Both the position numbers and the translations under genes were made by a program. A stretch of 64,000 bases of DNA from an uncultured bacterium (GTDB lineage: Bacteria > Actinomycetota > Coriobacteriia > Coriobacteriales > Coriobacteriaceae). The notes beneath the pieces were generated by a model. That model was given only the letters and a program-made list of their open reading frames with translations. It had not been told where the DNA came from and did no database searches. The stretch is from the NCBI GenBank assembly GCA_905214425.1, contig CAJMLY010000008.1, forward strand, positions 3,197-67,196. Direction: 5' to 3'. The stretch's first letter is position 1, and each line of letters begins with the position of its first letter. Positions 57,948 to 64,000 of this stretch are shown here, one piece after another.

Positions 57948-58084
57948 CCAACCTGCCAAACAGGGACAGGTTTATTTTGGCAGGTTTTATCTGGGCAAAC
58001 GCTACATCTCTGCCATTTGGTGCAAACGGACCTGTCCCCCTTCGCACCAATTTGGTGCCATGGGAGCAGGTCCGTTTGCACCAA
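57948..58084. repeat. Composite of Family E (copy 2) and Family D (copy 2) nested hairpins in the secA upstream region
   Basis: AACCTGCCAAA (57950-57960) pairs with TTTGGCAGGTT (57977-57987). GGGACAGGT (57963-57971) pairs with ACCTGTCCC (58031-58039). TTGGTGCAAACGGACCTG (58017-58034) pairs with CAGGTCCGTTTGCACCAA (58067-58084), a perfect 18 bp. Confidence 0.85.
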
Positions 58085-58085
58085 T

Positions 58086-58124
58086 AAAAGAAAAGGGCCG
58101 CGCACCCAGATGGATACGCGGCCC
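58086..58124 (-). terminator. Intrinsic terminator downstream of rpmE
   Basis: On the minus strand, GGGCCGCG-tatccatctgggtg-CGCGGCCC is followed by TTTTCTTTTATT. Confidence 0.7.
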
Positions 58125-58161
58125 TTTAGCCATGAATGCGAGTGTTTGCTCGGCGAGCTAT

Positions 58162-58587: not shown

Positions 58588-58671
58588 GGTAGGACTCCTT
58601 ATTGGTCAGGCGCTGGTTACCGATCAGCGCATAAGGCGTCTTGGTTTCCGACCAAGACAACAAACTCGGCT

Positions 58672-58700: not shown

Positions 58701-58771
58701 AAGGTTCACGGTCTTTTCGGAACGACACGAATCTGACCCATCGAAACACATCTCCACCGTTCCTTCAACTG

Positions 58772-58813
58772 GGAAAATGCCGTCCCCGGGGCCTGAGAAG
58801 GGCCCCGGGGACG
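58772..58813 (-). terminator. Perfect 13-bp GC hairpin, second terminator-like element after the ABC/secreted-protein operon
   Basis: CGTCCCCGGGGCC-tgagaag-GGCCCCGGGGACG (58781-58813). On the minus strand it is followed by GCATTTTCCC. Confidence 0.45.
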
Positions 58814-58903
58814 TTCGACTGACCGCGGGAACGGCCTTTCCGCTCAATGTGTTCGGCTGAGATCGGAAATCAACCAAACTGAACTAGGTTCAGTTGACAT
58901 GGT

Positions 58904-58940
58904 TAAAAACGAGGGGCGACGCTTTTGCGTCACCCCTCGT
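58904..58940 (-). terminator. Intrinsic terminator immediately downstream of the small secreted-protein gene
   Basis: On the minus strand, ACGAGGGGTGACGC-aaaa-GCGTCGCCCCTCGT is followed by TTTTTAACC. Confidence 0.8.
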
Positions 58941-58954
58941 CCCGGCCGGTTGCT

Positions 58955-59299
58955 TTAGTTGTACACGCGGTAGTTACACTTGAACTGGGTTATGTGTCCA
59001 TAGTTGGAGCGGTACCAACCCGACGTATAGCTGATTGCCTCTGCGCCTAGATAGTCGTAGCCCTTGTTGTAGCGAAGCTGACGGTAGGTCGTGTCGTACT
59101 CTGCTACGTAAAACGTGTCTCCAGAGAAGGCTTTGTACCGGTCCTTAACCGTCGAAGCCATGTACGCGGGTTCGACATCGCCTTTCTCCCCGTTGAGCGC
59201 ATAGACGGGTGCCGCGATTCCGCATAAAGCCGTTGCCACGAGGATGGCGTAGACAGCCATGCGCGACGCATTGGACTTCAGCTGTTCAAATAGTTTCAT
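58955..59299 (-). CDS. Small secreted Tyr-rich protein (Sec signal peptide; candidate bacteriocin-like product)
   Basis: MKLFEQLKSNASRMAVYAILVATALCGIAAPVYA|LNGEK... has the n-h-c regions of a signal peptide with a VYA cleavage site. The mature part is ~82 aa, very Tyr-rich, with one Cys. ATG 59299 lies 6 nt after GAGGTG. The gene is visibly AT-richer than the window. Confidence 0.7.
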   Translation of the reverse strand: MKLFEQLKSNASRMAVYAILVATALCGIAAPVYALNGEKGDVEPAYMASTVKDRYKAFSGDTFYVAEYDTTYRQLRYNKGYDYLGAEAISYTSGWYRSNYGHITQFKCNYRVYN

Positions 59300-59300
59300 G

Positions 59301-61115
59301 TCATTCACCTCGCTCGTATGTATCGAGGTATTCCTGCTTGAGCGTCTGCGAGGACGACTTGATCTTTTCCACGAGCGTGCCGGCCTCGATGAAGTAGAAC
59401 GAGTTGGTGAGGTCTGCCAGGTCGTCGAGCAGATGGCTTGAAATGAGCACGCTTCGTCCCCGCGCCACCTCGCTGCGCATCGCGTCGCAGGAGGTTTTCC
59501 GCTTTCCCGGATCGAGGCCGTTCAGCGGTTCATCGAGGATGAGGTACGGGCAATCGGTCGATATCGCCATGGCAAGCTTTACCTGCTGCTTCATTCCTGT
59601 CGAGAGTTTACGGGTCGGCTTGTCGAGATATGGGGAGATTCCGAGGGAGCTGCAGAGCGAGTCGATGTCGGTGGCCGATTTCCACGCCTCCCTAACGAAA
59701 GCAAGGTGCTCGAGGGCCGATAGCGTGGGATAGAGATCCGCGCCGCCCGAAGAGCTCAGGTAGACGAGTTCTGCAAATTCGGCTGATCGACGTTGGCAGA
59801 TTTCGTCTGCCGCCAGGCTTCCCGAGCGGATGCGGGTGGGAAATTGGCCCGACAGCGCTTCAAGAAGGGTGGTTTTCCCCGAGCCGTTGGGAGCAACGAG
59901 GCCCGCCGCCGTTCCCGGGCTCAGGAAAAGCGACCCGATTGAAAGTATCGTCGTGCTTCCGTATCCCACGCTCGCGTCCAGAAGCTCGAGCCCATGGTGC
60001 TTTTTCGCGGGTCCAGGCTGTTTGGGCGAACGTGTCGCAACGGCGCCGACCGCAAAAAAGACCGCGGCGTATGCCAGGGCCACGGCAAGCATCGATGCGC
60101 TGCCTGAACCGGAGCCAATGAATTCTGTCGGGAAGCATCCTACGTAACCCGTTGCCTCGATAGGCGAGAATACGGGCAGTGGCAGGAGCCCGAGCACGGC
60201 ATTATGCCCTAGTGCCGAATCGGACAGTAACGGGAATGCCGGGGCCGCGACAAGCAGCGCGGAGGCAAGGGGGCCCGCGAGGACGCGCCTCGTTGCGGTC
60301 GATAGGACGGCGGAGCAAACGGATATCAAGGTTCCGCCCGCAAGCAGCGCGAGAAGCAGGGCTGTGAAGACGTTTCCCGCGGTCGTGGTGGCAAGCGCGC
60401 CGTCATGGAAGAAGGCGATCGGGTACCCAATTTGCCCGAAGCCGTTTAGGACCAAGGCGTAAATGCCCCCGGGTGCGAGGCCGGCGAGGAGCATCGCGGT
60501 CCCCGCGACGATTATCGAAAACACGATCTGAATAAGGCGCCGGAATTTGGGCACGGGCGCCTTTGCCGCCAGGGTCCCGGGCCTTGTGGCGCCGAGCACG
60601 AGTATCGACGAGAGAAGGAAGGGGATGAAGGGAAGGAAAGACGGCGCCGTGGCAATGGCGTAAGGCAGGAAGGAAAGGAATGGCAGGTCGTTTGCGGAGG
60701 CCGGGATATCCGTGATGCCGGAGCTGCTCAGGGCACGGCAATATGCGAGCGCCGCGTCATTGGTCTCTCGGTCTCCCACGATGGACCCGGATTGGAAGCC
60801 TTCGCCCATGAGCGCGTAGTAGCTCTCGGCAGAATCGAGAAAGGCGGCGTCGGTTTGAGCGGCAAGGGCGGCGTTCGCGTATCTTGCAAGCTCCGCGTCA
60901 TTTTGCTGCTCTGGAGATAGGTCTGTGCCGCTGGCCTGGGGCGCGCGCGTATTGAATGCGTCGACAAAGCCCTGCATGCCCTGTTTCATAAAGAAGGGCC
61001 CGTAGATGGGTGAATTGAACGCAATGGGGACGGAAAAGGCTGCAGCGAGAACGAGCGTACAAATCCATACGGCCCTGTCTCTTAGGATTAGTTTGAGAAG
61101 AAGTCGACAGTACAT
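59301..61115 (-). CDS. Fused ABC transporter: N-terminal multi-TM permease domain + C-terminal ATPase
   Basis: About 370 aa of membrane domain carries a ~110-aa soluble insert. It is followed by GLVAPNGSGKTTLLEALSG (Walker A), LSTGMKQQVKLAMA (signature) and LILDEPLNGLD (Walker B). Confidence 0.85.
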   Translation of the reverse strand: MYCRLLLKLILRDRAVWICTLVLAAAFSVPIAFNSPIYGPFFMKQGMQGFVDAFNTRAPQASGTDLSPEQQNDAELARYANAALAAQTDAAFLDSAESYYALMGEGFQSGSIVGDRETNDAALAYCRALSSSGITDIPASANDLPFLSFLPYAIATAPSFLPFIPFLLSSILVLGATRPGTLAAKAPVPKFRRLIQIVFSIIVAGTAMLLAGLAPGGIYALVLNGFGQIGYPIAFFHDGALATTTAGNVFTALLLALLAGGTLISVCSAVLSTATRRVLAGPLASALLVAAPAFPLLSDSALGHNAVLGLLPLPVFSPIEATGYVGCFPTEFIGSGSGSASMLAVALAYAAVFFAVGAVATRSPKQPGPAKKHHGLELLDASVGYGSTTILSIGSLFLSPGTAAGLVAPNGSGKTTLLEALSGQFPTRIRSGSLAADEICQRRSAEFAELVYLSSSGGADLYPTLSALEHLAFVREAWKSATDIDSLCSSLGISPYLDKPTRKLSTGMKQQVKLAMAISTDCPYLILDEPLNGLDPGKRKTSCDAMRSEVARGRSVLISSHLLDDLADLTNSFYFIEAGTLVEKIKSSSQTLKQEYLDTYERGE

Positions 61116-61268
61116 TTAGAAGCACCTACGTTCCTCAAAGAATTGTTAGATTAAAAGTAACAGACCGGATGAAGATGCGTGCGACGGGGGCGAGGCGAAT
61201 GGCTGAGCGGTATCGATATGCGGGTTCAACGGTATCACATTGGCCACATAGATTTTTAACTTGCATTT

Positions 61269-62018
61269 CTACCCGCCCTTTTCGTAGAGTCGCCGATACG
61301 TGCTTAGCGCACCCTCGGCGCGTCCGGCAGGCTTTGCGAAATGGGATCCAGGAGACTTCGGCGCAGCATCATCTTGCGGAATGCTTCTAATGAGCCTCCC
61401 ATCCTTCAAAAACAGAATCTCATCGCACAGCCTATCGACCGAATCCAAGATGTGGGATGACATGATGATGCACGTACCAGAATCGGCCAGCTTCCTGAGA
61501 ATCTCGGAATGCAAGTCCACCCTGCTGGGGTCGAGCGCGTTCATGGGCTCATCTAATAGAAGGTACCGCGCGCCCGTCGCATACGCAATCGCCAGGGTAA
61601 GCTGCTGCTTCATGCCCTGGCTCAGAGTGCGGATCCTCATCTTCGCGAACTCGCCTATCTGCGTTTGTTCCACTATCTCTTCGATATCGCGAGCATGCGG
61701 CCACATATCGCAAACCATCTTGAGGTGATCTTCCGCACGCAATCCGGGATACAGCAGCGTCCCCTCACCAGGTGCATAGAAGGTCATAGAACGGACCTCT
61801 CTCGCACCCGTACCCTGCACCTCATCCAGAACGATGCTCCCGTCCACGCGAGGACCCGGCAAACCTGCCATCGCACGCAGCAACGTCGTCTTTCCATGCC
61901 CGTTCGGAGCGACGAGACCGTAGACCGTACCCGGGGCAAACTCAGCGTTCACCGAATCTACGATCACCTTCTTTCCATAAGAGATCGTCAGCGTTTGAAG
62001 GTCAATCATCGAGATCAT
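61269..62018 (-). CDS. ABC transporter ATP-binding protein (ABC-2 / bacteriocin-immunity-like type)
   Basis: GLVAPNGHGKTTLLRAMAG, LSQGMKQQLTLAIAY, LLLDEPMNALD. Overlaps the upstream membrane gene by 4 nt. Confidence 0.9.
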   Translation of the reverse strand: MISMIDLQTLTISYGKKVIVDSVNAEFAPGTVYGLVAPNGHGKTTLLRAMAGLPGPRVDGSIVLDEVQGTGAREVRSMTFYAPGEGTLLYPGLRAEDHLKMVCDMWPHARDIEEIVEQTQIGEFAKMRIRTLSQGMKQQLTLAIAYATGARYLLLDEPMNALDPSRVDLHSEILRKLADSGTCIIMSSHILDSVDRLCDEILFLKDGRLIRSIPQDDAAPKSPGSHFAKPAGRAEGALSTYRRLYEKGG

Positions 62019-63991
62019 CCCCTTTCGATCTTTGGAACACTCAGGCGCACCATCAACGGAGATACGGCGCCCAAGACCACCAGCAGAGCGCCCGATGCGC
62101 CGACGACCTCTCCAAAAGGCATCGCGTTCGTCCCTCGCCCAAGGAACCCAATCGTCCCCACCTGGGAAGCGGGATCAAACGAGGCGAATGGAGCCAGCAG
62201 CGCGACGCCCATGCCCACGCTTTCAACATGAGCGCTCAACGAACCCAACACCAAGAGAACCGCGCAAACCATTCCGGTGACAACGGGGTTGCGGCTAATC
62301 GCTGCTGTCAACGCAACGACGACGGAAATCACGCCGTATGCCATGACCAGCAACGGAATACTGCACAACACCGCCTCCCCCACCATGGACGTTGTCGAAG
62401 CTCCCGCCCGAATGAGAGCGACGGGATACTCCGACCCACCCGCACCGTTCTTAATCACGGACACAACGACAGCGGGAACCATCGACACCAAAAGCAGCAC
62501 CAAGCCAAGCAGGAGAGCCAGCGCAACAGCTGTCAGAAAACGCACATGCGCTGTTGCGGGGATCTGGAGAACCAGAAGGGAACGACACTGCAGGTGGGTG
62601 CACGCGAGCGATGTGACAACCACGGGCAACAGCAAAAATAAGGAGGGAAGCGCTGCCTGGAGATACGAAAGGAGGATTAATGGGGGCATCTTCGTACTTA
62701 ACTCGTAAACCTTGGGGTCCGGCAAGCTCGCGATCGACTCAAGCAGAAGGGCGCGCGCCTCCGCACGAGAAGGAGTCTCCGGCTCGATTCCGATCGATTG
62801 CAGGAGAGTCGCATCTGCCGCGCCCAGCTCACCTCGAGCGCGCTCGTACGTCGCAAGGCTTCGAAACCCCTCCGCAGGCATAGGCGCGTACACGAAACCC
62901 GAAAGAGCATCCCGCATGTCTTCCAGGGCCGCTTTGCCCTCGACGTCCATATTCGCAGCGTTCTGCTCTAGATACCGATCTATTGAACGGAGCTCCCCAT
63001 CCCTATACCGAACAGCGGAAACGTTATCAGCGTCAGGAAACATCTCGACCAGAGCCGGGGCCAGCATCGTCGTCGACATTGCAATCGCGCATACGGCGAG
63101 GGTAGGAGAACGCAGGAGCAGTTTCCCCATCGTTCTTACGTATGCAACGGCGGAGGCACAAGCGCTCGAACGAGTTGCCGTTCTCGATGCAGTGAAGGAA
63201 CCTCTCTCAAGACAAATCGGGGATATCGGGCACGCGCAGCCGCTCTTTCCAGCAACGCAAAGCAGGCTAATTGCCAGCACCTCGATCCCGATTGCGCATA
63301 CGAGGGCAATCGCGCCACGCTCGAAGCAAAGTCCAGGCAGATTCACTATCTGCGTTGTCGGGTACGGGCTATAGGCGCCGACGGTCAACTCAGTGTTCGC
63401 ATACGTAAGGGGATTCAACAGGGCGAACTCACGTAAAGCGATGGATCTTCCGTAATACCCGGGAACCATCGTCACCCCCATCAGGGCACATACGAACACG
63501 ATTCCAAGCGTAGGGTTATTGGCAATCTTCACGGCAAGGTGAACGACAAGCGAGATGAACACTGCCACCAAGAATTGCAAGATGGCTGTCTGCGCGAACA
63601 CCAGCCAAGCCGGTTTGATAACCGGAGTCGCATATTGAATGTAGCCTATCGGATAGAACGGCGAGCCCGGGCCATTCTTCACAAGCGCGGCGATTATCCC
63701 TGGAAGATTGATGGCGAGGACGGCAAGCATTGCAAAAACACTCGCCCATACGCTCGATGCAACAAGTCTACCCAGCTCGCCCATCGGTGCCTGGATGATG
63801 AGCTTTTCACGTTTGTTAAGACGCGCGGCAAGGAACGAGACGGCAACGGCCGTTGCGACCCATAGCAAGTACTCCTTCGATCCGTCATAATAGGTGTACT
63901 CTCCATCCGATATCTGCAGAAACGGAAGTAGGGGAGAGAGCGGTGCCAAGATAAGACGTCCCGCGGCAAGAGGGTACAGAAGCGCGGGCAT
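62015..63991 (-). CDS. Large integral membrane protein (~650 aa, two TM bundles separated by a soluble helical insert); probable permease partner of the 61269 ATPase
   Basis: Many hydrophobic segments, with a central soluble region (MFPDADNVSAVRYRDGELRSIDRYLEQNAANMD...). There is no stop between ATG 63991 and the window edge, so the N-terminus may lie outside the window. Confidence 0.75.
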   Translation of the reverse strand: MPALLYPLAAGRLILAPLSPLLPFLQISDGEYTYYDGSKEYLLWVATAVAVSFLAARLNKREKLIIQAPMGELGRLVASSVWASVFAMLAVLAINLPGIIAALVKNGPGSPFYPIGYIQYATPVIKPAWLVFAQTAILQFLVAVFISLVVHLAVKIANNPTLGIVFVCALMGVTMVPGYYGRSIALREFALLNPLTYANTELTVGAYSPYPTTQIVNLPGLCFERGAIALVCAIGIEVLAISLLCVAGKSGCACPISPICLERGSFTASRTATRSSACASAVAYVRTMGKLLLRSPTLAVCAIAMSTTMLAPALVEMFPDADNVSAVRYRDGELRSIDRYLEQNAANMDVEGKAALEDMRDALSGFVYAPMPAEGFRSLATYERARGELGAADATLLQSIGIEPETPSRAEARALLLESIASLPDPKVYELSTKMPPLILLSYLQAALPSLFLLLPVVVTSLACTHLQCRSLLVLQIPATAHVRFLTAVALALLLGLVLLLVSMVPAVVVSVIKNGAGGSEYPVALIRAGASTTSMVGEAVLCSIPLLVMAYGVISVVVALTAAISRNPVVTGMVCAVLLVLGSLSAHVESVGMGVALLAPFASFDPASQVGTIGFLGRGTNAMPFGEVVGASGALLVVLGAVSPLMVRLSVPKIERG

Positions 63992-64000
63992 GCTTGATGA

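Follow-up and report, generated by a model that had tools for sequence, protein, structure and literature searches.

What kind of system is encoded where two ATP-binding cassette (ABC) transport systems adjoin a gene for a small, tyrosine-rich secreted protein: a bacteriocin with its immunity, or a new form of export? The question is raised by the AT-richer end of a stretch of 64,000 nucleotides (nt), hereafter the window, taken from contig CAJMLY010000008.1 of GenBank assembly GCA_905214425.1 (positions 3,197 to 67,196, forward strand). The host is a Collinsella of the aerofaciens complex. A preliminary description, made from the letters of the window alone, had proposed a bacteriocin/immunity or novel export system and had likened it to lactococcin-972-type loci. 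We find that the locus consists of two paralogous modules, each comprising an ABC exporter and a dedicated small Sec-type secreted beta-sheet protein, and that the system they form is undescribed. An ABC exporter adjoining a Sec-dependent small protein is a known kind of arrangement; both specific protein families are uncatalogued, and their pairing appears to be undescribed. The broader idea of a Sec-secreted protein with an ABC module gains support, because the small gene is linked to the transporter, is carried on plasmids and can be lost while the transporter is kept, whereas the lactococcin 972 part of the proposal does not stand.

The locus had been described as four co-oriented genes followed by two terminators, and the open reading frame (ORF) listing, reading of the sequence and RNA folding all confirm this layout, with every gene on the minus strand. 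In the order of transcription the features are as follows (TM, transmembrane):

62015 to 64000, minus strand: 3' part of the module 1 permease gene (ORF 62015-63991, multi-TM, open at the window end)
61269 to 62018, minus strand: module 1 ABC ATPase, 249 amino acids (aa), PF00005 with E 8e-21
61116 to 61268, no strand: AT-rich spacer of 153 nt, GC 0.458, the boundary between module 1 and the module 2 cassette
59301 to 61115, minus strand: module 2 half-transporter, a permease-ATPase fusion of 604 aa with PF00005 at residues 395-532
58955 to 59299, minus strand: small secreted protein of 114 aa, with a putative signal peptide at 1-34 and a Tyr-rich mature part of 80 aa
58905 to 58943, minus strand: strong intrinsic terminator of module 2, a predicted 17-pair stem followed by UUUUU
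58877 to 58895, minus strand: second, weak hairpin at the right end of the cassette (-10.7 kcal/mol, z -2.8)
58735 to 58875, minus strand: remnant of the end of an IS30-family element, adjoining the cassette

The 4-nt overlap between the ATPase gene and the first ORF is as previously read, the AT-rich gap estimated at about 150 nt measures 153 nt (GC 0.46), and the small-gene ATG at 59299 does lie 1 nt past the stop codon of the fusion gene (59301-59303), with a Shine-Dalgarno sequence, AGGTG, upstream of it. The terminator at 58905-58943 folds at -33 kcal/mol (z -6.4); the base of its stem contains three G-U pairs, its 3' arm runs into the U run, and each of the two hairpins is followed by such a run. 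Module 2 (58879-61254), composed of the permease-ATPase fusion and the small protein, is apparently its own transcription unit, and the 153-nt spacer presumably holds its promoter; a sigma-70 scan found no consensus promoter in this spacer. The small gene and the spacers had also been called visibly lower in GC than the housekeeping neighbors. The deviation is real but mild. At third codon positions the first two genes have a GC content of 0.64-0.66, the fusion reaches 0.71 and the small gene 0.69; the median for long ORFs of the window is 0.72, and the highly expressed neighbors rpmE and secA stand at 0.79 and 0.84.

The first gene was the one part of this anatomy that had been misread. A protein of about 650 aa had been proposed, but the gene is cut by the window end and its product is about 740 aa long. 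The frame of the 658-aa ORF is open at the window edge, with an in-frame SSS before the ATG, and in related loci the first ORF extends up to 104 codons further upstream, reaching 762 aa in the long locus L006. The full module 1 permease of about 740 aa has some 12 TM segments by hydropathy and consists of two tandem units that belong with the transmembrane domain (TMD) of the fusion in one permease family. Both halves of the tandem match that family, and a motif of the NGxGxxxYP type is visible by inspection in each. No match to the module 1 permease was found in Pfam or NCBIfam. Reading of L006 indicates that the module 1 locus extends past the window. Directly upstream of the tandem permease in L006 lies a signal-peptide ORF of 111 aa. 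It is paralogous to the small protein, from which it has diverged (hhalign probability 95.8%, E 8e-9; family hidden Markov model (HMM) E 6e-6), and has no Pfam match, DUF1093 included. Module 1 is thus composed of this small paralogue, the tandem permease and the ATPase. Divergently transcribed from it in L006 are genes for a DUF2975-like membrane protein (a sub-threshold Pfam assignment), a small HTH_26 regulator and a shortened tyrosine recombinase. The recombinase ORF (L006 7703-8398, minus strand; 231 aa) matches the catalytic domain over profile positions 36-168 of 172, leaves no room for an N-terminal domain and is even shorter in L033, L075 and L078; it is probably a decaying remnant.

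The coupling of transporter and secreted partner extends well beyond this locus. Eleven contexts outside it were read, namely those of ten distant family members and of a further Collinsella aerofaciens paralogue, in which the small gene product is 29-50% identical to that of the window. Wherever enough upstream sequence is available, the small gene lies directly 3' of a homologous permease and ATPase, either split (a permease of about 375 aa without a Pfam match, and an ABC ATPase of about 220-240 aa) or fused (a permease-ATPase of 613-633 aa). In the two shortest contigs, L081 and L095, the upstream gene is cut by the contig end, and that of L095 was not identified. By BLAST against the window fusion, the upstream proteins of six loci show 27-34% identity for the permease or fusion and approximately 37-39% for separate ATPases; four permeases from the other five loci are 22-23% identical in family alignment A4. 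Transporter and small gene overlap by 4 nt at one extreme and lie about 90 nt apart at the other. In module 2, as in all 11 outside contexts, the small gene stands at the end; in module 1 it stands first. A divergent pair of HTH_26 and membrane-protein genes recurs in three lineages, and a LuxR-type regulator in two. The further C. aerofaciens module, L219 in strain TSDC17.2-1.1 (NZ_OY725717.1, 722284-726412), consists of a LuxR-type regulator, a 633-aa fusion and a 117-aa family member (hhalign probability 99%), in a 900-kb record labelled plasmid; one genome can therefore hold several modules.

With regard to the small protein itself, the signal peptide with cleavage after VYA is borne out by inspection, which reveals a basic N-terminus, a 19-residue hydrophobic core and the site PVYA|LNG. 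The mature part is likewise Tyr-rich with a single Cys, as described, although it is 80 rather than about 82 aa long, with 13 Tyr, a mass of 9.4 kDa and an isoelectric point (pI) of 8.0. No lipobox or sorting motif was seen by eye. An exhaustive HMMER search of 1.84 billion representatives returned 30 matches at E <= 0.001, among which 14 are distant full-length proteins of 85-118 aa (50% clustering). Almost all family members carry a hydrophobic N-terminal segment followed by a conserved domain of about 75 aa, with the motifs V.DTYK.F, YD.TY(R/K) and G.Y...GHIT.F.C.Y. The other matches are near-identical Collinsella fragments and four long proteins (P0050, P0059-P0061); these last were rejected as members, as they bear unrelated Pfam domains only and, many being without any matched stretch that passes alone, were read as compositional matches. 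In four metagenome versions (P0035, P0036, P0041 and P0042) the sequence switches to an alternative frame (…GRKAMSNPRTWLRRL…), which points to pseudogenes formed by frameshift or else to faults of assembly.

No member of the family occurs in Pfam, NCBIfam or the PDB. AlphaFold2 (AF2), run on the family alignment, predicts with a local confidence score (pLDDT) of 94-98 over the mature part four long antiparallel strands in a meander, at residues 47-60, 64-77, 80-96 and 99-113. Foldseek with this model gave no significant match in the PDB (best E 0.14, TM-score <= 0.28) and none in BFVD. Phage records likewise gave no match, and the PADLOC defence-system models yielded generic ATPase and HTH matches only. 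DUF1093, the Pfam family of YxeA, does not match the small protein, its 111-aa paralogue or the 144/145-aa alternative introduced below.

The fusion and the first protein had been noted to share a TM-insert-TM layout, and their permease parts prove to be homologous, the fusion TMD being 25% identical to residues 284-644 of the 658-aa ORF. In the fusion the permease comes first, with the ABC ATPase at the C-terminus. Hydropathy and the positive-inside rule predict six TM segments for its permease and an acidic outside domain of 125 aa between TM1 and TM2; the two best-conserved permease motifs, NGxGxxxYP and LPxxYFxPxxxxGxVGxFP, both fall in predicted outside loops. Pfam, NCBIfam and the PDB lack this permease family: none of nine diverse homologues has a Pfam match over the TMD or matches the ABC2_membrane families at E <= 10, the fusion TMD has no match in NCBIfam, and the PDB holds no sequence match to the permease. 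A profile search for distant permease homologues returned Collinsella sequences alone. The six-TM hydropathy topology fits type V exporters; the AF2 model of the fusion, built on a shallow alignment, has a pLDDT below 50 over residues 1-373.

Both ATPases belong to PF00005, with 75.6 and 69.2 bits against a gathering score of 25, and the Walker A motif GLVAPNGxGKTT is readable in each. They score best against an exporter group that includes lantibiotic-protection, DrrA, NodI and phenol-soluble modulin (PSM)-export ATPases, in all cases below the family cut-offs. TIGR03740, the lantibiotic-protection ATPase, is their best or second-best match, far under its cut-off of 309.75: the module 1 ATPase, for which it ranks first in NCBIfam ahead of the likewise sub-threshold NodI, DrrA and CcmA, reaches 124.9 bits and that of the fusion 76.6 bits. 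Membership in this LanF-like family was rejected on these scores.

How the modules vary among close relatives was examined in a scan with the 658-aa ORF against one genome per GTDB species, which gave at least 550 confirmed matches, of which the best 80 were kept. These 80 loci are mostly Collinsella by title, with a few that carry no label beyond Coriobacteriaceae bacterium or uncultured bacterium. The slot after the fusion gene is covered in 46 Collinsella genomes, and the small gene is present in 29 of them. It has been lost by a clean absence of 533 nt in 14, by a deletion of 317 nt at what appears by eye to be an AACTA microhomology in one, and in the remaining two an unrelated gene for a protein of 144/145 aa occupies the slot. 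Of 78 genomes, 35 lack the module 1 paralogue, and most of these 35 have the same absence of about 417 nt as judged by spacing, and all four combinations of presence and absence of the two small genes are found. The transporter genes give full-length tblastn matches wherever a contig covers them. The small partner is, in short, dispensable. Pairwise ratios of nonsynonymous to synonymous substitution (dN/dS) are 0.33 for the fusion and 0.33 for the small gene, in comparison with 0.03 for rpmE and secA, a pattern that we label relaxed or diversifying evolution. The two unrelated slot genes (L058 14684-15118 and L061 14008-14445) start with the same MNDM codons and encode an N-terminal anchor; their products are 37% identical to each other and have no Pfam match, and the L061 gene is followed by an ORF pair that resembles by eye an IS21-type transposase and its ATPase helper.

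Module 2 is also mobile. The cassette 58879-61254 (2,376 bp), holding the spacer, the fusion gene, the small gene and both hairpins, is found as one block, 96-97% identical, on two circular C. aerofaciens plasmids: NZ_CP084005.1 (29,994 bp, with ParA, ParG and DnaB) and NZ_OY725718.1 (27,038 bp, with a relaxase and ParA). Plasmid homology ends within the spacer at 61254 on the left and at 58879 on the right, and module 1 is absent from both plasmids. The right edge adjoins the IS30-family remnant at 58735-58875 (about 140 nt). In about 25 unrelated metagenome contexts this insertion sequence (IS) end breaks off sharply at GGTTGATTTCC, and in L101 it adjoins an ORF that reads by eye as a DDE (IS30-like) transposase. 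Copies of 74 nt, in the same orientation and 92% identical, flank the two-module island (L006 7484-7557 and 15112-15185). These flanking direct repeats were considered as att sites of an integrated element and rejected, the sequence being a dispersed IS30-family end found in many unrelated contexts.

Two further observations concern the history of the region. About 30 of the 80 genome contigs, including those of the isolates L060 and L076, stop somewhere between the end of the ATPase gene and a point about 380 nt further on. These breaks could stem from another copy of the cassette on a plasmid; a repeat or hairpin in the gap was rejected as the cause, the break points being scattered over approximately 350 nt. 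Moreover, a block of about 5.5 kb (L006 7250-12750), containing the recombinase remnant, the HTH_26 and DUF2975-like genes, the small paralogue, the tandem permease and the ATPase, with its right edge near window position 61250, is 99.7-99.98% identical among 20 Collinsella species-level genomes, with flanks at 90-98%. Its synonymous divergence (dS) is 0.003-0.004, against 0.07 for the fusion and 0.19 for secA. This looks like a recent sweep or transfer, to which the selection of query-like loci contributes bias; among full-length copies from a metagenome sample chosen by another sequence, 15 of 19 nevertheless reached at least 99% protein identity.

Is this a lactococcin 972 locus? Only the general architecture speaks for it: a Sec leader (the small precursor carries a Sec-type signal peptide by inspection), a small beta-rich mature protein, and an adjacent membrane protein with an ABC ATPase. 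Searches of Pfam and NCBIfam models PF09683, TIGR01653 and TIGR01654 gave no match at E <= 1 to either the small or the large protein, and comparison of the mature Lcn972 sequence, verified as 2LGN, with family profile A2 by hhalign gave a probability of 0.14%. Foldseek matched the small-protein model significantly to neither 2LGN, which is absent from the top 50 matches listed, nor any other structure. The fold of Lcn972 is a sandwich of two three-stranded sheets, and the beta-sandwich that the preliminary description led one to expect did not materialize, the AF2 prediction being a four-strand meander. The segment SGWYRSNYGH, whose likeness to a region of Lcn972 had been pointed out, must be put down to chance because the HMM, hhalign and Foldseek tests all failed. 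The permease differs as well: TIGR01654 proteins, at about 650 aa and with a 1+6 TM topology, contrast with permeases of 6 or about 12 TM segments, the latter in a protein of about 740 aa, and the large protein was rejected as the seven-TM TIGR01654 type, for which it has no NCBIfam match. A true lactococcin 972 family member with a TIGR01654-type membrane protein is therefore extremely improbable, and kinship with lactococcin 972 is refuted at the level of sequence and of predicted fold.

What, then, do the modules do? The reading we favor, tentatively and at somewhat less than an even chance, is that of a candidate secreted antagonistic protein with ABC self-protection, in other words a bacteriocin and its immunity. 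The mature protein of about 9 kDa would be released outside the cell to act as an antagonistic bacteriocin-like effector, and its cognate ABC exporter would shield the producing cell on the outer side of its membrane, either by expelling the effector or by keeping it, or the damage it does, at bay; genomes with the exporter and without the small gene would be immune non-producers. This is consistent with the linkage, the putative export signal, the mobility, the loss of the small gene with retention of the exporter, the variable gene slot, the dN/dS values and the affinity of the ATPases for a group of drug and bacteriocin-immunity exporters, and bacteriocin activity of the small protein is on this sequence evidence a candidate function. 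Several points weigh on the other side. No likeness to a known bacteriocin emerged from Pfam, NCBIfam, the PDB, Foldseek or hhalign, and the pI within the family spans 4.9 to 9.8, so that its members are not consistently cationic. Across lineages the small protein retains 32-49% identity and the permease 27-34%; a toxin caught in an arms race would not usually be conserved better than its permease. Where the unrelated 144/145-aa gene replaces the small gene, the fusion keeps 95-97% identity, which argues against strictly cognate immunity. Exporters are present in every sampled Collinsella genome whose contig covers them, so a toxin would not discriminate among these conspecifics. Finally, the nearby regulators (HTH_26 with the DUF2975-like protein, or LuxR-type) are not typical bacteriocin quorum systems.

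Some of the same observations would also fit a resistance module, in which the ABC exporter removes an external membrane-active compound or peptide that the small protein binds or presents at the outside domain, in the manner of LanI or LanH beside LanFEG or of YxeA, encoded after YxdLM in Bacillus subtilis. We regard this as possible, if on the unlikely side. It would account for the strict adjacency of the genes, for the best-conserved permease motifs lying in outside loops, for a small protein conserved at least as well as the permease, and for an exporter that persists under constraint without the small gene, as if a helper only improved its function; an unrelated small anchored protein can fill the same slot, and the upstream HTH_26 and membrane-protein pair of three lineages would suit an inducible envelope response. 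Such a helper, however, has no visible lipid anchor or wall-sorting motif to hold it at the cell and no sequence or fold likeness to LanI, LanH or DUF1093, a candidate substrate is lacking, and a useful subunit would not be expected to be lost as often as here, in roughly one third to one half of the genomes. A related and doubtful proposal is that the small protein is a dedicated extracellular subunit, docking on the conserved outside loops and the outside domain of an unclassified ABC permease family. It is less probable still that the small protein is the client of the ABC machine in envelope assembly or release, being extracted, folded or placed after Sec translocation as a structural, adhesive or fibre-forming Tyr-rich surface sheet. 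Here too the conserved gene coupling and the outward-facing permease motifs fit, and the single-layer amphipathic four-strand sheet of the model would be unlikely to be stable alone and should pair or stack. Against a client stand the missing signs of wall attachment and the purifying selection on the exporter in genomes without both small genes, in which the exporter must therefore have a role independent of it. The bacteriocin and helper models are not separated by the computation used here.

Collinsella is common in the human gut, and what decides competition between its strains seems to have received little study. Should the small protein prove to be an antagonistic effector, as the bacteriocin reading has it, the locus would represent a new family of Sec-dependent bacteriocins with ABC self-protection, moving between plasmids and chromosomes, and genotypes that are naturally immune without being producers could be tested at once. 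Were it instead a subunit or helper, a new partner-dependent type of ABC exporter would be at hand; the subunit case would mean a new three-part architecture of Gram-positive ABC exporters (membrane domain, ATPase and secreted partner), spread by plasmids among gut Coriobacteriia and with a partner that is swappable or dispensable. Either way, two families without a Pfam, NCBIfam or PDB entry gain a testable genomic context.

A few features of the neighboring rpmE region should also be mentioned. Just upstream of rpmE lies an L31-Coriobacteria ribosomal protein leader (RF03128, 58595-58630, minus strand; 35.1 bits against a gathering score of 33), with a second, partial match at 58638-58658. 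Downstream of the gene, a long perfect hairpin (58003-58096 and 58092-58127) that includes a terminator-like stem of 16 pairs probably serves as its terminator; the matches to plant and animal microRNA models that it produces fall below threshold and are spurious.

Comparison with known systems places the locus among several familiar arrangements. A literature search on DUF2975, on Collinsella bacteriocins and on lactococcin 972 in Coriobacteriia returned nothing obviously relevant at the level of titles and abstracts. The ABC-2/type V exporters (DrrAB, NodIJ and PmtABCD) resemble it in their ATPases and in the layout predicted for its permease from hydropathy, with six TM segments, a large outside loop between TM1 and TM2 and an inside C-terminal end, but no ABC2_membrane match is found here, and neither the fusion of TMD followed by nucleotide-binding domain nor the dedicated secreted partner is known from those systems. 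LanFEG with LanI or LanH is alike in its ATPase, TIGR03740 being the best or second-best scoring model, and likewise pairs an exporter with a dispensable small extracytoplasmic partner. The scores, however, are far under the cut-off, the permeases are without a family model, the partner is not a lipoprotein, and the stretches examined, in contrast to LanFEG loci, showed no genes for the biosynthesis of lantibiotics or other peptides. In Bacillus subtilis, YxeA is a small signal-peptide protein co-transcribed downstream of YxdLM, a peptide-resistance ABC transporter of the BceAB type with a large outside domain. The yxdLM-yxeA order, a small signal-peptide protein after an ABC transporter with an outside domain, recurs in module 2, whereas DUF1093 gives no match, the permease has six TM segments rather than the ten of the FtsX type of BceB, and no two-component system was seen nearby. 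Lactococcin 972 loci, lastly, share with it a Sec-dependent small beta-rich protein adjoining an ABC ATPase and a large membrane protein that has a domain outside the cell, and module 1 even has their order, with the small gene first. The protein families are unrelated, a predicted meander replaces the sandwich, the permease has 6 or about 12 TM segments instead of seven and can be fused to its ATPase, and the small gene comes last in module 2 and in the 11 outside contexts. What the lactococcin 972 loci and this locus have in common is the logic of the gene set, not ancestry.

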